A stretch of DNA of 54,241 bases, the filler included, from Sphacelaria rigidula (taxonomy: Eukaryota): the NCBI GenBank assembly GCA_964200075.2. It is 5 parts of 5 records of this genome, joined end to end, with 100 filler letters (N's around TTAATTAATTAA, not from the genome) between each part and the next. Parts side by side here need not be neighbours in the genome. Positions count along the whole stretch, not along the records: positions 1 to 10,770 come from CAXNAA020005945.1; 4 more parts are not named here. One strand, written 5' to 3'. Made by a program: the position numbers and the translations under genes. Under the pieces are notes generated by a model that was not told the origin of the DNA, ran no database searches, and saw only the letters and a list, made by a program, of their open reading frames with translations. Of this stretch, positions 1 to 43,474 are shown in pieces. Positions within the stretch are counted from its first letter, which is position 1. The number at the start of each line of letters is the position of its first letter.

Positions 1-293
1 CCCCCCCCCCCCCCCCCCTGAGCCCTGGAAACCCCCGGATGTCTCGGGACTGTCGGCCGGTACAACTATTCCGAGGCGACGCTCGTAGTCTAAGGGTTAA
101 ACTCTCACTTATCCGGAATGTAAGCAGGATTTGGAAATTCCAGATATAAGCCGGATATGTACTGTATGCCCCAAAGTAGGCCATATGGTCACTGTGGGAC
201 GTCGGACAAGTTTGATTCACCATCAGATATCGCATTGCATGAAAAACAAATCGGAGGTTGGGGAGGGGATGGTTCGTTATTCATCCCCTGGTT

Positions 294-313
294 GGGTTAG
301 GGTTAGGGTTAGG
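294..313 (+). repeat. Interstitial telomere-like (TTAGGG)n tract
   Basis: GGGTTAGGGTTAGGGTTAGG at 294-313. Confidence 0.8.
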
Positions 314-1218
314 AACCCAATCACCTTCTCTTTTTCCAAATCAGTGAAATTCTTGCGTTTTGCCACCTGGGAGGCACTCCCACCAGCGGACATGCCTCGC
401 AAGAAGATGGGAAGGCTTTTGACCGGGAGTCCAAAATTGGGGTGGTGATTTTCAGCGACTTGTGCTTGGGTGGGACACACTTTTCTAATGAATGATTGCA
501 AAAGCATCGGTTCTGGCTGTTCGGCGTGAATGCAGCGAAACCGGTGAAAAAACAAGTTCGAAAAAAGAGTTACATGGGCCCAAGATAGACCGCCTTTTGT
601 CGAAATCCCGCTTGTATCCCGGATCAGAGCGAGTATACACCAAGACGGTCGAATCGTCCGAAACGGCCGTCACCCCCCTGAGAATCCGTGATCTGACGAG
701 AATTTTGATGCAGAACGACTTAAATGTTCGGTACAGAATTATGAGGGAAAGTGTGTCCAAACAGATTTCGTACATCTTCGGCCGTATCTCGTGGAAGGCG
801 TCGCCGATTTCAAACCTGATAGCGCCAGAATTCCTGTCAGATCACGGGCTTTCAGGAAGATGATGGACGTTTCGGACGATTTGACTTTCTTGGTGTAAGT
901 CGCGAAAAAACGCTCGTCCGGAAAGAACGATTCCGTTCCAAATCGCACGAACATGTCGTAACACACGAAACTACTCACCACAAGCCGCTGACAGAGAGGC
1001 GACACAGGCGAACATTCAAGACGCGAATACGGGACCGATCGGGTGATGAACGAAAGTTTACCTGCAAAACCGCGGGAGCCTGGCATTGACGTTATGCGGT
1101 AAATTATGCGGCCAATTCAATTGAACCAAACCCATGCATTCTACCCGATAGTGTTGGATTTCGAAGAGAGCGCCTTCATGACACTCCCGGGTGTTGTTTT
1201 GCTCTGCCGTTTCCACAG

Positions 1219-4200
1219 ACAACGAGGATATCGAAGGAATCGTATCGGAGACAGCAGATGCCAACGACGAGCCAGGCACGGTCATTCTCGCACTCCGCTC
1301 TGACGTAATTATTCTTTGCCTCATCGAAGACATCCGAGGTGCGGATGCAGTGCTCACAGCTCTCCACTTTACAAGGGACGACGTTGAGGGGCCGTCTCAC
1401 CTCCTTGTACTTTCGACGACCATGACGTGGGCAAAAACGAAGATTCTGCCACCGAAAACATGTTTTCTGGAGGACACGTTCGCGCCATCTTCCCTACTTC
1501 GCCCGACCTCCATGGTGCCAATAAGCAACAGCAACAGTCAACGTTCTGCCACGAGCAACACAGGGCCGGGGGGAACTTCTGCGCTGCCCCGAACAGCTTC
1601 CGCCGTAGTCAATTCCGGAACCGCATCCCCATCGCGAGAAACATCTCGACAGCAACGAACAGTTGCACAGGGAGGTAGCAGCAGCCCAAGCAGATCCACT
1701 TCTCCACACCGAGCAGTCACAACTAGCAATACGTCTTTTCGTCGGCGGCAACCTGATCGTCTTGCTGGGCCTTGTTTCATGGAAGAAGACTACATACTAC
1801 GGAAACCTCCATCAGGTGGGTAACTTGTGCCGAGAAGCTTCACCAAAGTCGACACCAAGAGTGGACCACTCTTGCACCCTATCTCAAAGTTATGATCCTC
1901 AACATGCGCTATTCCCCTGAGCGCTCCTGAAGAACTGGGCACGTTTCTGCAAGATTATGCTGTACCACTCTTGCACGTTATCGCAAAGTTGTGATCCTCA
2001 ACATGTTATATCCCCCTGAGCGTTCCTGAAGAACTGAGCACGTTTCTGCAAGATCATGCTACATAGGCATCAGCATCGAATGAATATCATCATTACTATT
2101 AGTACAGATTGCCCAAAGATTGCCTAACCACACCTCGACGCAGTCCAAGGGACGACTCGCTTGATGGTGTCACTTGTCACCTCTCCATCAAAATTCCGTC
2201 AGGCTTCCTCGAGCACAAGCGACTGGAAGATGCTGCACTGCGCCTGCGATCGCCAACACTCAGCGCTTGCGTCGTGGGCAGCGGGGTGCCCTACGGCGTG
2301 GGCGAGGGACCACTGTTGAGGTTATTCAGAGAGGCATGGATGCAGCGCGATAGCATTCCCGTTCGGTTGCCCACAAGCAGCGTTGGCAATAATCGGCTTG
2401 CATTGATTAACGTCTTGGATCTTAGCGCTGTTGTCGGCGAACTCCTCCCGCACCCGTCGATCACGACACCACAACACCCAACTCTACCCCCAGCACCATT
2501 CCCCAAGCCATATATCCTCGCGGTGGATGGGAACAGTTCACAACCTACAGTAAAGGAAGCCACAGAAGCCCTGGCGAAAGCATTCGCTGGTAGTTCGGGG
2601 AAGACAAGGCCGATGGAAGCCGAAGAGCTTGAGGAGGTGTTAGTAGATGATCCTCCCGCTCTGGCTTTGTTGTGCGATCAGCGGTATTCTAACGACGGTG
2701 GGGTTGTCGCGAACATGGTGGCACGAGGTGAGTTAGTTCAGTTACTTTCTTCGTTGTACGTGTACTTCTGACACACCTTAGGCGTGGTCCGGCAAAACGT
2801 TTGCTCGGCCGTGCATAGAAGTAATCTCACGTTAGGATTGTAATGGTGTGTTACGACACTCCATGATTCCTGTGTGAGCACCCTCGTGCGGGAAAGTGCT
2901 GTCAAGCGGTGTGTACACGTGCGCTACGGCGACATTAACAGCGATCAAGACGAGGTCGTCACGTGCCATGACTCCCCACTGTGACTACATCGTGCAATCA
3001 GTCCTCCCCCGCCCCCCTTCATAGAGGTTCTGAGACAAGAACAACTGTGAAAACACTTGCGTCATTTCATGCGCCAACCCTCATCAGGCCACTACTCTCT
3101 GCAATCGAAACATTTTTCCGTAGGAAGGCTAGAACCTGTCACCTGGTCCACGGGGTTCGCGGCCTCAGTAAAACAACTCGCGAAGGAATTCGTGATGTGC
3201 AGATCGCTACATCCCATCCGTGCCGTCGTTTTGGGACCGCCGGGAGCGGGTCAAGACCTCGTGTGCGAAAAGGTATCGCACAGGCGTATGTGGGCCAAGA
3301 TCATGCGTGCAAGGAGGTATTCTATGCGCTGGTTCGGTTGAAAGAACCGTTTATTGTTGGCTATGTCACGCCTACAACTCTCGACTGCTGAAAATGTACT
3401 ACCCTACCATGATCCACCACGGCAGATAGATGACGTACAAGAAATTCTGTACATCCATGGCCGCTGTCTCTTTGTGCGTCAGATTTCGGAACGATACGGC
3501 TTGATGCGCGTGGACGCAAAAGTTGCTGCCGATGGGGTATTTTTTGCGCTCGGAAAGTCGCTGCCGGAGCGTGCGCCGCTGGAAGAAAAACCCACGTCAG
3601 CGGCAAAGGGGAAAAAGGGCAAAGATGCAAAGAAAGCGACAGGTAGCAATGGTGGACACTCCAAAGCTAACATAATCATTCCAGAGTATTGAACGAAGCC
3701 TTTGATACCTTTTGCTGACAGAGCTCCTTCACACTTCTTCAGAGCTCCTTTGAACCGTAGGTTCAAGGACAGGGCTTCGTGGTACAAATATTGTTTTCGC
3801 CTACATGTTCTAGTACTTGGTTCCCGCGTCCAGCAGTCTAGCGACATAATAGCACTTGTGTAGCGTGCGTCACCGCAGCGCAGTTCGCACCTGCGCATGG
3901 TAGAGAGTGTCGTTCGGTCGCAAATAGTATTTATCAGGTATGATCTGTGAAGTATGGTGGCAACATAGGAATTGGTTGCACTTGAAGCTTCAAACACCCC
4001 CTCGGCCTGACCCCCTTCACAAAAACATTATTGCAATGCCGTACTGTTGCTGAGCTTTTTTCGCGGGGAACTGCGATGTAACCGCGTTTCGTCCCTACTG
4101 CAGCAATATAGAGCAACACATGTTTGCAGGCCACCGTCACTCAAATTCCAAGAAAACAAGCAGCGGCCCTCCTTCATCACATAATTCAGCGACAACAAGG

Positions 4201-7200
4201 AGATAGTCTCCGAGGCTGACGTGATTCGTGACTACCGTTGTCGTAGGGCTGAATAAAGGCGAGCAATCGGCAGAGGCCCTAGCAGCGCTCGCTGAGCTTT
4301 CTTCAACCGAGCGCCTTATGCACAACATTCAAGTGGCGTTCGAGGCAGCCGATATTCCGCTGACAGAATACACCACTCTGGACGCTAGCGGATTGGGTCG
4401 AATACTCTCACCCTCGATCGTTGCTACGGCTGCTCGACTTCTGCTAGAGGAAACAAGAGGGCAATGGTCTCAGCGGTAAGTTATTTCCACGCGATAGTGC
4501 TGCCACCATCTTTACGTGAAACTTGCGTGTGTTGGAAGATTACAAAAAGTCGGTTGTACCCATGCTGCAAAACGGCTGGTAACTCCCGGTAATGGGGGCT
4601 TACTTGCAGTAGGACGATCTCGGAGTAGTGTTGAAATGAACTTTGCTCGTAGTTTGACAAAACGTACAATGTATCGCTGGTGTTACATGTCTCAGCGTAT
4701 TCCATGGACATCATGTCGGGTGTTGAGCGTTGTGGTCGATGAATGCCCTCGCATTCATACAGCAGGTCGTCAATACACTTCCTGATCCAGCCAATTTCCG
4801 TCGACAAATGTTTCTCGCTCTCACCACAGCGGGTACATCCTGTGCGATGTTCCGTCCCGCGACGACTGCATCTCGAACATATTTGAGGAGGAGCAACAGT
4901 CCTCGTCATCATCGACATCATCCCTTCGACCAGCTGCCGACGGTGGTGGTGGTGGCGGCGGCGGCGGCAAGGGTGGCCCTGTTGGCGAGAACGATTCTAA
5001 CGGCGTGGGACCCTTGTCACAGAATCCGCCCGCATCTGACGCTATATCTGACGTTGACAACGAGTTGTCATCATCCTTGTTGCCCACTCATGTCACGTAT
5101 CTACACGCGAGCGCAGACTTTCTTCTGAGTGAGGATGGAGTGACGAGGCAGATGAACAAGCTGGAGCAACCGATATCGATGCCGCCAGCGGTGGCAGCAG
5201 CGGGGGCGAAGGGTCGACCCGAGGAGAAACTTCGGCAAGCGATTGAACAATATTTTGAATTAGAGAAAATTAATGTGAGCAGTCAGCACGTTGTGAGTGA
5301 CGTGGAAGTGCAACCGGTGGTAGAGCCGTCGAGGAAGGCAACATCATTGCCTAGCAGCGAGAGTGTAATGGTCAAAGAGGGTGTTACTGAAGACGATGCT
5401 GCTACGCCACTGTGGCTGCCGGCGACGGCCGTAGCGTTGCAGAATGAGTTTGCCGCGAAGACGCAAGCTGTGGACGCTGAAGTAGACTTGCCGAGCCTTG
5501 TGGAGGCGGTAGATCTTCAGCTTACCGACGGGGAAACTCCTGAGTTTGTTTGGATGCTGGCTGGGGAGGGCCTCGGGCAGGCAGGTCGAGTGTCCTCTGG
5601 TGACCCGGAAAGTGCACCGATGGAACGCAAACATTCCTCAGGTATGGACCATGCAGATGTAATCTTCGAAAGTTGTACGCCTCGAAGTCCCGAGTTTGTC
5701 CCGGATATCGATGGTGCATATAACGGTAGCAGTGCTCAAGTATGCTAGGATTGCACTAAGACGCGCCCGTTCACCAAAGATCCACATGGGTTATGTACCT
5801 TACACCATGACTAGTTCCACACATCAACAGGAGGCAGATGTCCCCTCCCCTCCCACCGTCCGTCACGGTCTTACATTATCGTTCAATATCCATCTGGGAG
5901 GTGAATATTTCAGATGGATATCCCTGAGGGGTATCACATGCCAGATGAGTGTTTATCTGGGAAATGGACGCCCATCTGGGATGTGGATATCCATGTGGGA
6001 TGTGGAGGGGGATATTCCTCTGGGGTATACTCATCTATCTGAGATATCCCCAAGGGAGATCCACATCCGAGGTGTACATCCCAGATGGATATCCACATTC
6101 CAGATGGAAAATCCATATCCCGGATGGATATCCCAGATGGACGCGCATGTCCCAGATGGAGACTGCACGAAAAAGCAAACCCCCTCCTTTACACAGAGTA
6201 GCTGGTCAATACATTCGATGAATGTGGTGAGCGAAGCATGGCTTTTGAAATCACTGACTCACCAACGCAATGCACGCCTCTCTGCTGCCCCCCTCCGGAA
6301 CGTCTACTGCTTTGCCCCACTCGCAATGCCTCCCTTGCAGATGACACGGAACGCATCAACAACGCCATCAGTGTTCCATCAGCCCCCTCGCACGGTGGCA
6401 GCGATGAACTTCATCCTACGATAGGAGCGCCAGGCGGCAGGGAGGAAATTATCACGACCTCTACCACAACAGATGACCATGCCCTCATGGGGGTGCTTGC
6501 AAAATTGACAGCTCAAGATGCGAAAGAGGTGGAGAGCCGAACGCGCCGCCACCGAGCCTATTTGACTGAAACCGTGGTGCCCCAGATTGCCGCCGGACTC
6601 CTAGCGGCGGCTGAAGTTCGGCCAGCTGACCCATTCGAATTTCTCGCCAGCTACCTCATGAGGTGTGCGCGGGCCCAGTTTTGATGGTATTGCGTGTGAT
6701 GGCTCTGAGTCAACGGGGCGGCTGTGCTGTCTTTGTTTTAGAAACCGCTTAACGGATAAAACAGCGTAAAGCTTCAGGTTGGTCGCAGGAATTCACGCTC
6801 GGGCTGAGGATTATCCTGTTTTCATGTCTGTGCACAGCCTCTAAGCTTTCTTGCCACTCGACACCGCGCTGTATATTTGATTCAGATTCGAACGAAATCC
6901 TGGTTTGGTTTTTCCCAGTGCGAGTTTGGTCGGGGTGCATCGCGCCGGCATCAACGGGTGTATGTTTGAGTCGTTGCGCTCTTTCCGTATATTGCGCATT
7001 TCCACAAACGAAGAAGATACGGCAGTTGTTTCACCAAGGACAACACCATACGTCACAGCCGATACATGACCGGGCTTTGGATCGCGAGCATCCATGCTTT
7101 CAGACGGCGAATTATTGTTTTCACGTTATTTGACTTGCCGCCAAACATGTGCTACAATGAAGCAACACTCGCCACGCAACGTGCATCTCGTTGCACTGTA

Positions 7201-7334
7201 GGGAGGGACAAGCTCTTCAGCGTCGAGCGGAGGCAGAAGCCGAGCTCAAGTACCAGGCCGGATTAGCCCTGCTGCGTGAGCTGGAGGCGAAGGAAGGAGC
7301 GGGAAGTTTAGTTTCCGACAGCTTAGGGCGATAA
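1219..7334 (+). CDS. AK7: Adenylate kinase 7-like flagellar protein (Rossmann-like N-domain, AK domain, C-terminal Dpy-30 motif); spliced, 5'-partial
   Basis: Phase-consistent GT-AG exons: 1219-1815, 2203-2727, 3124-3272, 3483-3642, 4247-4475, 4830-~5641 (donor uncertain, 5641 or 5725), 6341-6662, 7202-7334 (TAA). The translation has AK7-type blocks LSTTMTWAKTK, EEDYILRKPPSGFLEHKRLE, VVGSGVPYGVGEG, GNNRLALINVLDL, LHPIRAVVLGPPGAG, RGYILCDVP and LPTHVTYLHASADFL, plus the Dpy-30 motif RAYLTETVVPQIAAGLLAAAEVRPADPFEFLASYLM. The start exon was not found in the contig. Confidence 0.85.
1865..2060. repeat. Two-copy tandem duplication, ~99-bp period, in AK7 intron
   Basis: ACCACTCTTGCAC...GATCCTCAACATG...CCTGAAGAACTG.GCACGTTTCTGCAAGAT.ATGCT starts at 1865 and again at 1964. 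Confidence 0.9.
5880..6160. repeat. GGATATCC/CAGATGG-rich degenerate repeat (dispersed family)
   Basis: Many GATGGATATCC, CATCTGGGA and CCCAGATGG motifs; a similar block occurs at ~12290-12570. Confidence 0.75.
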
Positions 7335-8403
7335 AACAGCTGTATGTGTGCAGCAGTGTGCCAAGCCTCTCGTGATTTCCTCGTCAGGCATTCTTCTACC
7401 ATATGGTCGGTGACTGACACAATGCTTCGAAGAATTCGAGAGAGGTAAACTCCAGCCGTGTGTCACGCCCTCGTGATATGTTGGTGACGCTGAAGAAGCT
7501 GTTTCTGAAGCACGACAGCTGGTTTCTTCCGCAGGACAATATTCTTCGAGCCAAGATGATTTTTTTTCACTGCGGTTATTACATCCCTTGATTCAAATTC
7601 CCACACCCTACAACTTGTCTATCGTACTCAAGTTTACTGCAGCGAATCTACAGCAAAATAGCTTCGTGCGGAAACGGGTACCATCCGACCCAGGACTGCA
7701 TTGGTGCTACCACCTGCATCCCAGCGCGGGGTTTGTTTTGCACGGACAACTATCCGCGACAACTGCGAGATGGTGAATAAATATCACAGTCAAACTCACC
7801 CTTCTCTATTTCCCCCTAATGCAGGGTACGGTGCTTGACACACGAGATACGGGCCCTGTAGATGCTACTGGACCGTCCTCGGAAGCTATTGTATCCCTTC
7901 ACAACGTGTAAGCAAACAAAACGTGGAAGTACAACGCCCCGCATTCCACGTTCGGTAAAAACATACGCAGTCGCGGGACATCAGTGGTGATGCCGGCGAT
8001 GACACGAGATGGATTGAGGGAGCAACTCCCAGCTATCGTGGGTTCTTTTAATCGTGACAGGAGTTCACCACTTGGACTACTGTACTCTCAAGGATGGGAC
8101 ACGCTGACATGTACAGGCTCACACACCGTGTTTTTTCAATGTTCAACCTAGTGGTGTATCGAGCACACACTTGGGCTACGCACGAGCGCCGAGTTTCTGC
8201 CCGTCAAAACGAACGTACTCACTCAAACATGAACTTTGAAACAGGGGCATTCTGAATACACATGAGGCAACAACATAACACTGGGCGCGGCCTACCCTCC
8301 ACTGCAGGAAAACAGAAACATGACAAAAAACGCCTCTTGCCGTGTGGTTGTCCCACCAACCACCACGACCAACACCACCGCCGTCAACAGGACAAGATGC
8401 AGC

Positions 8404-10512
8404 TTAACTTGAACCACCCCTCCAGACCCCGCACAAAAATGCCGGTAAGAATGCCGCCGATGTGGCAGCCACCAACCATAGCGGTTCATCGCAAATCGCA
8501 AACGCCAGAGGCAGTGGGAGATACGCTGAAGAACGAACACCAACCACGGCCAACACGGCGCCTGAAAGCGCCGAACCGATGTAGCCGCCAGTATTGCACC
8601 AGCTGCAGCGCTCCATGAAAGGGTATGCTGCCTCGATGAAGTCACCGAAACATAAATTGATCCTAAAACCGCGTCGGGCCAGCGGGATGTCCGTCTGATG
8701 CTTAGGTCGCAGCAAGTGCGCTGCGCAGAGACCTGCAAGAAGTATCGTTAGTTGAGGGAGGGTCCGAGGGCCGCGCGCAGTGGAGGGTGGCTATCTGATA
8801 TGCGACTGAACGCCATAGCAAATGATAACTCGGGCATAGGTTGGGGTGTCTCACGAAGCTTGGTCCATCGTGACTATGCATTAGTGGTCCACCGACCACA
8901 TCACCAAGTGGAACATGATCATGTTGAATACTGGAACACTACGAACGGGGGACGCATGGATCGAAGAAAAATACATCGCATTCGTCTTCTAGTCTCATAC
9001 GTGTTGATGGAAGGTAGTGCCTACCGTATGTACTTTCCGGCTATAGCAGTACCTCGTTGAACTTGGGAACAACAAAATGACGCGTGAACGCCAAGGGTTC
9101 ACTCCTACCGACCGAAAGTGTCCCGCGTACCTGCGGCAACCATGCACAGAGCGCACAGATCAATCGCTCCCCAGATGGAGCCCCCTCCCGCAGCGAGTTC
9201 CAAAACAATAATGGGTAGGAATATTCGGTGGTACCAGCCCACCTTAGACCCATAGCACATCATATAACCCATTGCAGCACCAATGACACCCTGCGCAATA
9301 CATTCAAACACATACAGTCAGCACGAGTGATGAAGGAGACCCCATGTTTCCTGATCAGCTCAAACCTCTTCTACAATTTCAGTTTACGCCACGGTCGCGG
9401 GAGGGGCGCAGATAAGTAAAGTAAAGGTGGTGCCGGAACCATTTGCTCCTTGCAGCAAACGCCACTCATTGTGGATGTGACAAAATGTAGGGCCTGTACA
9501 GCTTCTGGATTTTGAAATATCTGTACCGCCGGAAAACAATTTTCATTTTTCCACAGCTGGCATCTCAATACCCACTTTTACAAAATCAGCTCGGTTGTTT
9601 CAGCCAACGAGTCGCACATTTCGTGATCGGAAGCTGCACGTTAGAGGGAGGGTGGAGAAAACGACCAGACGATCACGTGGTCGATGACAAGGCTGTGATG
9701 TTGATTGACAGAGTTACTAGTGGACCCCGAGAGGACCAGCTTTTCATTATCGAGCTAATCAGGCCCTTCACTCCCATGATATCCCGGTTACCGAGACCCC
9801 CGATGAGAGCCTTTTCAAAAATATTTCAGCGTCCTGGCCGCCGCTTCCTCCGAGAAAATCGAGTTTTTGCGAAAATAAAGTGATCACTCGCCCGGAAGGG
9901 TGTTGGTACTCCTTTACCCGTTCGAGTACCGTACGCACCTTTGTCCACGTGTTCGTGACCGCGCCGAGGAGGACATGCGTTGATGCTAGCAATGCCCAGA
10001 GAACCCTTAACGATGTGTGGTAAAATAACAAGAAATACGAGCGACGAAGGTAAGAAAACACTCATAAGTTGACAGTAATTTCAATCCTTCACTTTACGGA
10101 AGGGCGGTGCAGTTCTTGTGCCCGACAATGAATAGGCAGGAACCGGTTGCCGCCGCGAGGATAAACGCAACGAACCCCGCGGTGTCCGAATTGTGGTACA
10201 GTACCGCACATGGCGTCCATGGAGCGGAAGACGACTACGTTCAAAAACAAGCGCTTGGAGCTTTTGCCCTCACTCAAGGTAGCATCCTCACAAGAGTGTT
10301 GGTGCGGAGTTCGACGCCGAAAACCTCCGCAGAGCCGCGAAAACACGCATGCTACAGTAAGTGTCAACACCGGGCAACCGGAAGAGGGGTAGCGAGTATG
10401 AGCGCCCCTTGCACCAACGAGCACAACTTGTTCTTTGTTCATCTCAAATCGTTTTGCTTCACTCACTGGACAACCGGCAAGCAATATCTGACGATCGAAC
10501 CCGAGATCAGTC
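8404..10512 (-). CDS. Multi-pass membrane protein resembling bacterial PTS-EIIC-like sugar permeases; spliced, 5'-partial
   Basis: Phase-consistent exons: 10512-10467 (less certain), 10005-9939, 9290-9131, 8732-8404 (TAA). Translation: GLISGSIVRYCLPVVQ-VLWALLASTHVLLGAVTNTWTK-GVIGAAMGYMMCYGSKVGWYHRIFLPIIVLELAAGGGSIWGAIDLCALCMVAAG-LCAAHLLRPKHQTDIPLARRGFRINLCFGDFIEAAYPFMERCSWCNTGGYIGSALSGAVLAVVGVRSSAYLPLPLAFAICDEPLWLVAATSAAFLPAFLCGVWRGGSS. The motifs GxYHxxxLPxIxLE, SxxGAxD, GxxINxxFGxFxEAAYPFM and VRxxAYxP match my recollection of Firmicute 'PTS sugar transporter' membrane domains. Confidence 0.75.
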
Positions 10513-10639
10513 CTGACGGCAGCGTGGCGTAAAAGGAGAGCGACGTTGCTGGCACACCCCAAGCCAAGCATGCAGCTGTCAGCTTCGAACAAGAGTACCC
10601 TGACCCCGGCGCCGCCGCGACACGGTTGTTTCGAAAGGA

Positions 10640-10770
10640 TCACGATTGGGACGAATCATCACGGGTTCGCATCACCAAATCCACGATTTCTTCGGCCTGA
10701 TTGCCCGAAAGGGAGAAAAAAGTTGACCGCTGGTCCAAGGTGTACCCACGCAACTTATGCGCCATTCCAC
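10640..10770 (-). repeat. Dispersed repeat copy, cut by contig end
   Basis: Its reverse complement GTGGAATGGCGCA.AAG.TGCGTGG...AGCGGTCAACTTTTTT...GGCAATCAGGCCGAAGAAATCGTGGATTTGGT matches 11516-11645 on the + strand. Confidence 0.85.
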
Positions 10771-10870
10771 NNNNNNNNNNNNNNNNNNNNNNNNNNNNNN
10801 NNNNNNNNNNNNNNTTAATTAATTAANNNNNNNNNNNNNNNNNNNNNNNNNNNNNNNNNNNNNNNNNNNN
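10771..10870. other. Artificial contig linker (N-TTAATTAATTAA-N, 100 nt)
   Basis: N run with TTAATTAATTAA (stop codons in all six frames); same design as the other three linkers. Confidence 0.98.
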
Positions 10871-11515
10871 GGTGAGCTGCATCCTGCTAAGATTGTTCGG
10901 CCCGAAGCGTACTGACTATCTCGCACATGGAGGGCAGCCTACAATGAGTTGCTTCATTTTCTGGTATCGCCACTTCCGGAGACAACCACAGGTTAAATTG
11001 CCTCACGGGTCTCTCACCATTTAAATACTGCGTAGTACGTTCATCCCCTTCGCGCGGAGTTGAGGTTCTCCACCCCAATCAACATGACCTAGCTCGACCA
11101 CCATCGTGGTTACCGCGAGACGAAACAGCAAGGATGAAACAAGAAAACGGTGACCTGGTTGCCTAGCGTACGCAGCGAGTGGCGTGTTTTACAGCGTCGT
11201 TGCCAACCGACCCCAACCCTAATGAAAAGGGGCGGGGGGGGGCTAGATGAATATATGACTGACGGGGATATACTCGGTTGCCTCGCACAACGGACAGGGG
11301 AGGCGTGCGGAGAGAGATGGTCCCACCACCATTACAGTACGATATCAAACAGCCGTCTAGGGGCGACACTCTCGGTCTGCAAGTGGTTCAAGGGTCGGAC
11401 AAATAATGATTCGTCTGGAAATTACTCGGCTGTAGTATAGTTGATTCGACTCGTACGAATCAGTCCCTGGGCTTTGTTTTCAGAGTTGCAACCCAGGTAC
11501 ACGCAGCCCAGATAC

Positions 11516-11645
11516 GTGGAATGGCGCAAAAGCTGCGTGGATACCCCTTGGACTAGCGGTCAACTTTTTTCTCCCTTTTTGGCAATCAGGCCGAAGAAAT
11601 CGTGGATTTGGTTATTCGTAGTCATGATGATTCATCCTAACCGTG
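11516..11645 (+). repeat. Dispersed repeat copy (same family as 10640-10770)
   Basis: Direct sequence match to the reverse complement of 10640-10770. Confidence 0.85.
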
Positions 11646-12289
11646 AAGTGGTTGTTCTTCCAGCATGCCGTACGTATTGACTTGGTGCGGGAACGCACGT
11701 ACTATCCATTCGAAAATGTGAGTGCAAAAGAGGTACCACGCTACACAGCACAGCGCAGTACCGTACAACACGTGAGTTACGCCGACGTGGATGAAGACAA
11801 TCTCTTCGTTGTATTTTATTGAACCAACCACTTGAGGAACCACATACGGACAACTACAGTATGTGTCCTAAACAGCTATCAGGCGCACACGATGACGAGT
11901 CCTCAGATGGACATATCCGGACATTTCAAGGGTCAGCGTTGCCCGCTGCCCCGGTCTTGCACTATCTATCGTGCAGCCTACACCCAGGGTGTGGATAAAT
12001 GCCTGGAAATATCCCAAGAGAGTGTTGGGTCTGGCGAATACCCGGGGATCTACTCTCCCGAAAATTGTGTTGCGATGATCCGATCTCCAAGCTCTTCCCA
12101 AACTATTGGGTATATCTCCAAGCTCTGCCCAAACTATTGGGTATACAATCAGGTTCGATCGCAGTACTTTACCCCAAGTCTGGTTTTGTTGAGCACGATC
12201 TCGACACTCGACCCAAGTTTTGGGTACTTGGAGTTCGAGTTTTCAGAATACCCAAATGTAGGAAATACCCTACCTGACCAAAACACCCT

Positions 12290-21638: not shown

Positions 21639-21738
21639 NNNNNNNNNNNNNNNNNNNNNNNNNNNNNNNNNNNNNNNNNNNNTTAATTAATTAANNNNNN
21701 NNNNNNNNNNNNNNNNNNNNNNNNNNNNNNNNNNNNNN
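21639..21738. other. Artificial contig linker
   Basis: N-TTAATTAATTAA-N, 100 nt. Confidence 0.98.
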
Positions 21739-32506: not shown

Positions 32507-32606
32507 NNNNNNNNNNNNNNNNNNNNNNNNNNNNNNNNNNNNNNNNNNNNTTAATTAATTAANNNNNNNNNNNNNNNNNNNNNNNNNNNNNNNNNNNNNN
32601 NNNNNN
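32507..32606. other. Artificial contig linker
   Basis: N-TTAATTAATTAA-N, 100 nt. Confidence 0.98.
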
Positions 32607-43374: not shown

Positions 43375-43474
43375 NNNNNNNNNNNNNNNNNNNNNNNNNN
43401 NNNNNNNNNNNNNNNNNNTTAATTAATTAANNNNNNNNNNNNNNNNNNNNNNNNNNNNNNNNNNNNNNNNNNNN
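43375..43474. other. Artificial contig linker
   Basis: N-TTAATTAATTAA-N, 100 nt. Confidence 0.98.

Follow-up and report, generated by a model that had tools for sequence, protein, structure and literature searches.

The described proteins closest in fold to the system considered here are the Enzyme IIC (EIIC) domains of the phosphotransferase system (PTS) found in Escherichia coli PtsG (IICB-Glc, 8qsr), Vibrio cholerae IIC-Glc (9lgt), Bacillus cereus MalT (5iws, 6bvg) and ChbC (3qnq), and the canonical subfamily closest in sequence is that of the beta-glucoside/sucrose EIIBC(A) permeases, represented by the models TIGR01995, TIGR01996 and PF02378. According to PMC11393339, transport by E. coli IIC-Glc is of the elevator type, and the OH-6 of glucose, which is the phosphorylation site, is held by E298 and H211/H212. 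Reviews state that PTS proteins are absent from eukaryotes. We describe here an EIIC-like gene of the brown alga Sphacelaria rigidula, found on the minus strand at positions 8404-10599 of a 54,241-nucleotide stretch of assembly GCA_964200075.2 (the whole stretch analysed, hereafter the window). That this gene is real, is spliced and encodes a homologue of EIIC-fold proteins is considered very probable. The reading favoured as a whole, in which the gene would encode an EIIC-fold carbohydrate carrier of algae that acts independently of the PTS and is of old bacterial origin, is given a probability of about 0.7.

The part of the gene contained in the window is composed of four coding exons separated by three introns (Table 1). 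The first of them opens with two bases of a codon, corresponds to a part of the EIIC domain bearing a conserved P-A-T stretch, and was aligned on residues 242-285 of the Ectocarpus protein P0002 (CAB1116454.1). The last one bears the motifs G-D-F-I-E-A-A-Y-P-F-M and S-S-A-Y-L-P. The phases of the exons fit one another, since the codon shared by exons 1 and 2 is split into 2+1 bases, exons 2 and 3 are joined in phase 0, and the codon shared by exons 3 and 4 is split into 1+2 bases; the spliced product has 228 residues without any internal stop. An earlier note on this DNA, prepared from the sequence, had proposed that the locus is a eukaryotic gene which contains introns and encodes an EIIC-like permease related to bacterial proteins, and this proposal stands, as fold, profile homology and splicing agree. 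Its four phase-matched GT-AG exons were recovered when borders, phases and the ends of all three introns were read from the sequence, and all the motifs that it quoted were found on the minus strand. The start of its first exon, placed at 10512, was wrong and had to be moved to 10599, next to the acceptor site. The N-terminus had been said to lie beyond the contig end, in agreement with a tblastn search of seven relatives against the whole window, in which matches were restricted to 8419-10636.

The splicing of this gene was verified in assembled contigs of sequencing runs. Eight runs contain the stretch, none of which is recorded as RNA, and four of them were marked 'RNA?' as a guess. The comparison included X1, X2 and X3, which belong to one study and carry this mark, and X5, which belongs to a second study. 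In the contigs of X1, X2 and X3, all three junctions were spliced at precisely the borders deduced from the DNA, reading CT..AC on the plus strand, which corresponds to GT..AG on the minus strand, so that the splicing check outlined in the earlier note came out positive in these presumed RNA runs of a single study. Exon depth in X1-X3 was about 50-60 and intron depth ~5. In X5, a single colinear unspliced contig extended over 8200-10678 with zero joints; X5 is unspliced DNA. Moreover, the X1-X3 contig over 10466-10602 continued into 24 letters that are absent from the window and that, read by eye in frame, extended the similarity to the Ectocarpus protein, and therefore a next upstream exon exists beyond the end of the piece. 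At the other end of the gene, contigs of 1097, 1191 and 1434 letters covered 8200-8730/8736 at exon depth (47-62), and the 3′-end contigs reached several hundred letters beyond 8200 by their record coordinates, which suggests a long 3′ untranslated region (UTR).

It was also observed in X1-X3 that the loose letters found upstream in the contig ending at 10602 recurred in a contig that ends at 10007. This configuration, found in one contig per run in one study, suggests a transcript form in which the 133-nt exon 10599-10467 is skipped; as read from the sequence, the frame of such a transcript would be shifted and a premature stop would follow.

Table 1. Coordinates of the features in the window (positions count along the whole window; X1, X2, X3 and X5 are sequencing runs; P0002 is the Ectocarpus protein CAB1116454.1)
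Feature	Position	Strand	Length (nt)	Remarks
Coding exon 1 in the window	10599-10467	-	133	acceptor AG 10601-10600, donor GT 10466-10465
Intron, GT..AG	10006-10466	-	461	joint 10004->10466 (cut +1), 1 contig each in X1, X2, X3; none in X5
Coding exon 2	9939-10005	-	67	gap-free against P0002 over both junctions
Intron, GT..AG	9291-9938	-	648	joint 9289->9938 (cut +1) in X1, X2, X3; none in X5
Coding exon 3	9131-9290	-	160	bears G-W-Y-H...L-P...L-E and G-A-I-D motifs
Intron, GT..AG	8733-9130	-	398	joint 8730->9129 (cut +2) in X1, X2, X3; none in X5
Last coding exon (exon 4)	8404-8732	-	329	stop TAA 8406-8404
3′UTR, lower bound	8200-8403	-		transcript contigs pass 8200
P-loop-like stretch of neighbouring gene	3051-3341	+
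Dpy-30 motif of neighbouring gene	6202-6684	+		E 8.5e-11
High-copy repeat, end of piece 1	10608-10770	not assigned		summed contig depth and flank comparison

The 228-residue product was found to be closely related to P0002, with which it shares 146 of 225 positions (65% identity, E 8e-102) in an alignment that crosses all three junctions and has a single gap of one residue, a similarity well outside the range of chance. It was 53% identical over 150 residues to the Phaeothamnion protein P0007, and 35% identical over 145 residues (E 6e-25) to P0119, a protein of a Rubrobacter metagenome-assembled genome (MAG). An exhaustive phmmer search with exon 4 against 1.84 billion representatives recovered 186 proteins at E<=1e-3, of which 58 reached E<=1e-10 and two E<=1e-30. 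Full-length relatives have 470-600 residues, and exon 4 corresponds to the last 100 of them. The algal-type family spans brown algae, Phaeothamnion, a diatom, a haptophyte and a chromerid; its named sources are several Ectocarpus species, Discosporangium, Phaeothamnion, Skeletonema marinoi, Diacronema lutheri and Vitrella brassicaformis, besides MMETSP and EukProt transcripts, and all the named sources have red-derived plastids. The named homologues are annotated as unnamed or hypothetical proteins, and those of Ectocarpus are placed on contigs of up to 2.17 Mb. An alignment-based second protein search, which used a word index, added no further named organisms.

The conservation of the product was evaluated in an alignment of 43 sequences, comprising 29 bacterial and 14 algal-type members (12 named or transcriptome-derived and two metagenomic), from which a family profile was also built. 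In the region covered by the window product, all 16 invariant columns and 15 of the 17 near-invariant ones (>=90%) were retained, and because of this retention of invariant residues the product looks like a working member of the family and not like a decaying copy.

The fold of the family was assessed in an AlphaFold2 model of the Phaeothamnion protein P0007 (534 residues), which was built from a 55-sequence alignment and reached a mean predicted local distance difference test score (pLDDT) of 92.6 and a predicted template modelling score (pTM) of 0.88. In a Foldseek search of the PDB with this model, ranks 1-9 were all occupied by EIIC entries (best E 6.9e-6), which included PtsG, V. cholerae IIC-Glc, MalT, ChbC and deposited models of PtsG, TreB and MtlA. 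VIA-align, which is independent of Foldseek, was run against 48,161 PDB representatives and placed 8qsr_A at the top, with a Z of 19.3 and 324 of 383 residues aligned at a root mean square deviation of 4.2 to model residues 199-532. It was followed by 6bvg_B (Z 18.1), 9lgt_B (Z 17.6) and 3qnq_A (Z 17.1); these four ranks aligned 319-324 residues, and at rank 5 the score fell to a Z of 10.0, in a match to the N-terminal domain of the model. Judged by the model, the membrane half of the protein has the EIIC fold and that of nothing else known, and its membrane domain of ~330 residues is folded like the Enzyme IIC transporters that make up the glucose-fructose-lactose superfamily of the PTS. This fold is shared with PtsG, IIC-Glc, MalT and ChbC over the whole EIIC domain, although the structure-based identity of these structures to the P0007 model is only 8-14%, without any sequence match. 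The deposited model of E. coli MtlA (EIICBA-Mtl) has the same superfamily fold, with 237 residues aligned and a Z of 15.2, below the 19.3 of PtsG. In contrast to the PtsG group, the family has no EIIB-Glc domain, in place of which an N-terminal domain of 190 residues with a different fold is found, and the window gene has a eukaryotic host and introns.

A bridge between the family and canonical EIIC was also found at the sequence level. In hhalign, the family profile was aligned with a profile of six Bgl/Scr-type EIIC over 269 columns with a probability of 96.6% (E 5.4e-10), and an hmmsearch with the family profile against 20 canonical EIIC of three bacterial genomes found one of them at E 8.9e-12. 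Conversely, P0119 and a Paenibacillus member matched TIGR01995 at 2.7e-11 and 1.5e-12, with 43-47 bits against a cut-off of 614.7 bits, and matched the sucrose and glucose/maltose NCBIfam models more weakly, also below their cut-offs; no mannitol or fructose model was matched, and thus the nearest canonical subfamilies by sequence are those of beta-glucosides, sucrose and glucose/maltose. Matches to TIGR01995 in the range of 1e-11 to 1e-12 were confined to bacterial members, whereas the algal ones had none at E<=0.01. The window product is linked to canonical EIIC through its family, without a direct match. In the three bacterial genomes, PF02378 found 6, 19 and 5 canonical genes and missed the family's own gene in all three. 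Since profile homology exists and PF02378 misses the family gene, the family represents a branch that has diverged within the superfamily and escapes the models now in use. These results bear out the fold and homology checks recommended in the earlier note, with top structural matches belonging exclusively to PTS EIIC. The Pfam check failed, as PF02378 and PF13303 matched neither the exon products nor the relatives at any reported threshold. The bacterial motifs that the earlier note had listed were met almost literally in P0119 and in bacterial proteins named 'PTS sugar transporter' by NCBI. The mannitol or polyol substrate that it had offered as speculation received no specific support, given the nearest subfamilies just named.

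The residues that hold the phosphorylated hydroxyl in IIC-Glc may have counterparts in the family. In the hhalign alignment, an invariant Tyr-His pair, encoded by exon 9290-9131, fell on the canonical His-His of G-M-H-H. An invariant Glu was found in the loop aligned on G-I-T-E-P, at a position that differs from that of the canonical Glu by +1 in HMMER or by -3 in hhalign. The disagreement of the aligners is due to four additional residues that the family loop has, relative to the canonical one, between Gly and Pro. In the mechanism that we propose, the protein would be an elevator-type carbohydrate carrier that binds its substrate between two re-entrant hairpins, with contacts provided by the invariant Tyr-His pair and by the invariant Glu of the G-D-F-I-E loop, both of which would stand at or beside the sites that His211/His212 and Glu298 occupy in E. 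coli IIC-Glc. The elevator mechanism is expected by analogy with PtsG-type structures. If the reviews are right that eukaryotes have no PTS proteins, the classical phosphorelay would have no part in the action of the carrier, which would be a uniporter or else be gated or coupled by its own cytoplasmic N-terminal domain.

This N-terminal domain, an alpha/beta domain of ~190 residues, precedes the EIIC domain in every full-length member, bacterial and algal, and is also present in the closest relatives of the window product, Ectocarpus P0183 and EukProt P0151. Its invariant or near-invariant residues (Paenibacillus numbering) are G-S-S-G-G, Asp54, Asn86, Ser112, Asp114, G-T-G-G-x-S and Gly156, and it has Gly-rich loops of the forms G-S-S-G-G, G-T-G-G-T-S and G-G/S-G. 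No Cys or His was invariant or at least 90% conserved in this domain among the 43 sequences, and because of that the domain is not a classical EIIB phosphocarrier. When it was modelled alone from 40 bacterial sequences, a three-layer alpha/beta sandwich was obtained with a pLDDT of 90.7, whose structural matches formed a flat list (best Z 10.6, best Foldseek E 4.5e-4) of flavodoxin-like and vWA-like domains, lobes of periplasmic sugar-binding proteins and LacI effector domains. No PTS EIIA or EIIB and no kinase stood out in the wide Foldseek and VIA-align searches with this domain. In the ESM Atlas, members of the same family were matched with a template modelling score (TM) of 0.9, and generic folds such as PfkB with a TM of 0.55; clusters from Pseudomonadota were also noticed there.

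Additional N-terminal residues, numbering 135-275, were observed in the brown-algal gene models P0183, P0186 and P0187 (Ectocarpus) and P0151 (EukProt). A block of this extension, which the bacterial type lacks, was conserved between P0183 and P0151, and no Pfam family matched it. It may be a lineage-specific added domain or may come from a merged gene model.

The bacterial relatives were represented initially by P0119 (530 residues), which falls in the same cluster as MBA2692351.1, a 'PTS sugar transporter' of a Rubrobacter MAG. When one genome for each of 185,579 prokaryote species was scanned with the algal motif pattern, none of the 44 sequences that fitted the pattern was a relative, since the bacterial type has Thr where this pattern required Asp. 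A scan of the same prokaryote set based on the alignment of the bacterial type gave 383 pattern matches, 349 of which encode relatives. These are widespread in Bacillota and are found in Spirochaetota, Chloroflexota and Actinomycetota too, the hosts including Paenibacillus, genera of the Bacillus group, Brevibacillus, Clostridia, Spirochaetaceae, Anaerolineaceae and Actinomycetota. The 80 relatives most similar among the 349 were selected as loci for analysis, and all the bacterial loci were of full length, with the N-terminal domain included. The bacterial family, of the MBA2692351.1 type, has the two-domain architecture, a length of about 520-530 residues and a motif set in common with the algal type, and 23 columns are invariant across both types. 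They differ in that the bacterial type reads G-T-F-V-E where the algal type reads G-D-[FY]-[IV]-E, and in that the bacterial genes are intronless and often placed in a catabolic operon.

The gene neighbourhoods of the 80 loci were compared by clustering every open reading frame with 100 residues or more, and 20 neighbour clusters were scanned. In 23 of the 80 loci (e.g. L026:3455-4294, L075:9561-10397), a gene of ~280 residues was located immediately downstream on the same strand. Its product showed weak matches to phosphate-binding TIM-barrel enzymes of sugar phosphates, namely NanE-like (3e-8), HisA, HxlA and ThiE-like proteins. Regulators were also present, with GntR/UTRA in six loci and DeoR in four. 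Neither a PTS component nor a gene of the mannitol pathway was found among the 20 conserved neighbour clusters, a scan that leaves singletons aside. As judged from these sequence matches, the bacterial context is that of a catabolic operon for carbohydrates, the intermediate of which is probably phosphorylated. The downstream partner gene offers a handle on the substrate of the bacterial family.

The evolutionary relationships were examined in a maximum-likelihood tree of 88 rows, which included the window peptide, 57 algal-type proteins, the bacterial-type P0196 and 29 bacterial loci chosen from the 80. One branch, with a Shimodaira-Hasegawa-like approximate likelihood ratio test (SH-aLRT) support of 100, split all bacterial-type from all algal-type rows. 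The window protein was grouped with Ectocarpus P0002 and EukProt P0151 (100), and then with Phaeothamnion (94), and the branches were much longer and deeper on the algal side. By sequence, the algal type forms a separate and more divergent branch of this unnamed two-domain family. An old transfer from a bacterium to an alga is the most likely origin, which we infer because the rest of the superfamily is prokaryotic, because canonical EIIC resembles the bacterial members more closely in sequence than the algal ones, and because the algal genes have acquired introns. In this scenario, in keeping with the depth and diversity of the algal branch, the gene would have reached an algal ancestor from bacteria long ago and would then have spread or been inherited among lineages with red-derived plastids.

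Several points weigh against the interpretation of the gene as a PTS-independent EIIC-fold carrier of bacterial origin. The evidence for the fold comes from a model of the relative P0007, and the window product itself is devoid of the N-terminal half. The RNA nature of X1-X3 is a guess, and all three come from one study. Sequence models of known families gave little: the products of the two largest exons had chance-level matches only in Pfam and NCBIfam, with no PTS family at E<=10; none of 10 full-length relatives matched any Pfam family at E<=0.01; and the 55 aligned algal-type relatives matched no PTS family among 23 Pfam families at E<=1, two of them touching TIGR01996 at 0.013 and none of the 55 reaching the model cut-off. 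Sequence searches of the PDB with exon 4 and with both family profiles found no EIIC chain, only chance matches at E>=0.08. The equivalence between the family Glu and the Glu of GITE is ambiguous between the two aligners. Finally, the tree is unrooted and its bacterial sample biased, so that the direction of the transfer is not given by it, and canonical EIIC, at an identity of about 22%, would supply a root of little reliability.

Other explanations were weighed on the same evidence. The N-terminal domain could make the protein a self-contained group translocator, replacing EIIB and the relay and phosphorylating or chemically trapping the bound sugar without EI/HPr, in bacteria as well as in algae. 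In BC-type permeases, EIIB is located on the cytoplasmic side, N-terminal to EIIC, and the domain found here occupies the same place, is always fused and has invariant Gly-rich loops; the pTM of 0.88 applies to the whole protein. In addition, the operon partners resemble enzymes of sugar phosphates and the regulators are of the sugar-phosphate type, and the His and Glu that hold the phosphorylated hydroxyl in IIC-Glc are conserved in position or adjacent to it. However, the domain has no conserved Cys/His and looks like a generic alpha/beta sandwich among whose matches no kinase or PTS domain is prominent, and the bacterial hosts, with their complete sets of canonical EIIC genes (6, 19 and 5 in the three genomes), could lend PTS partners, for which reasons this explanation is regarded as unlikely. 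A role as the mannitol or polyol carrier of brown algae, which store and translocate mannitol, would agree with the presence of the E. coli MtlA model among the structural matches. This substrate seems quite improbable, however, since the family, which a diatom, a haptophyte, a chromerid and Phaeothamnion also possess, is not bound to the mannitol metabolism of brown algae, since PtsG, MalT and ChbC outscore MtlA, since none of the sequence-nearest models is one for mannitol or fructose, and since no mannitol-pathway gene was seen in the 20 bacterial neighbour clusters scanned.

The algal proteins might also have ceased to transport carbohydrates, acting as a sensor or regulator (a transceptor) or carrying a solute that is not a carbohydrate. 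Eukaryotes would be without the energy-coupling partners according to a review, and the N-terminal domain resembles sugar-binding-protein lobes and LacI effector domains with Z values of 9-10. Nevertheless, the binding-site and hairpin motifs are kept, along with every invariant residue covered, the fold match spans the whole of the transport and scaffold domains, and the bacterial context is that of catabolic operons, which leaves this explanation very unlikely. As to an artefact, be it contaminating bacterial DNA, a pseudogene no longer active or open frames that arose by chance, the numerous bacterial relatives and the truncation of the gene by the end of the piece could raise the suspicion. 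It is contradicted by the removal of three GT-AG introns in contigs of three runs, by the identity to an Ectocarpus protein whose genus has its homologues on long contigs, by the neighbouring gene with AK7-like and Dpy-30 similarity in the same piece, and by a reading frame free of stops in which all invariant residues are kept, and we give it hardly any credence. An EIIC-fold carbohydrate carrier that works independently of the PTS thus continues to be the preferred reading.

Both the fold and the superfamily are known; what is new here is their occurrence in a two-domain family for which no model exists, and in an unexpected kingdom. A full-text literature search, for which subscription journals, transporter databases and supplementary files were outside reach, found no EIIC homologues described in eukaryotic algae. 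A nuclear gene that is expressed, contains introns and encodes an EIIC-fold transporter stands against the reviews that deny PTS proteins to eukaryotes, and it raises the mechanistic question of how an EIIC elevator works without a phosphorelay, for which the always-fused cytoplasmic domain is a candidate for coupling or gating. It also reveals a blind spot in annotation, in which a large family of bacterial and algal proteins is missed by Pfam and NCBIfam models, and it may point to a previously overlooked way in which ecologically dominant algae of the sea take up or export sugars. If the group-translocator explanation were true, the N-terminal domain would represent a coupling module of a new kind, and the inheritance of algae with red-derived plastids would include a PTS-like uptake system that modifies sugars vectorially, the first to be known from eukaryotes.

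The window is made of five pieces of ~10.77 kb each, separated by spacers at 10771-10870, 21639-21738, 32507-32606 and 43375-43474, each of which is composed of 44 N, TTAATTAATTAA and 44 N. Linkage between features of different pieces cannot be assumed. The EIIC-like gene belongs to the first piece (1-10770), which also contains a multi-exon gene on the plus strand at about 2100-6700. Besides the Dpy-30 motif and the P-loop-like stretch, this neighbour showed a weak match to adenylate kinase 7 (AK7) chains in the PDB (E 3e-4), and these similarities are consistent with an AK7-like flagellar gene. The location of an AK7-like gene on the same contig as the EIIC-like gene, as previously noted, was thereby upheld, with both the motif and the similarity inside piece 1.

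The end of piece 1 is occupied by a high-copy repeat, which sits inside the intron preceding the first exon in the window. Its summed contig depth was ~1e4 in X1-X3 and 4e5-9e5 in X5, against about 10-70 in the unique flanks. This repeat probably represents a dispersed element at which the assembly breaks, and it is likely the reason why piece 1 ends there. A look-alike translated stretch was observed in piece 2, not far from its beginning (about 11441-11680, plus strand), in the orientation opposite to that of the repeat at the end of piece 1.

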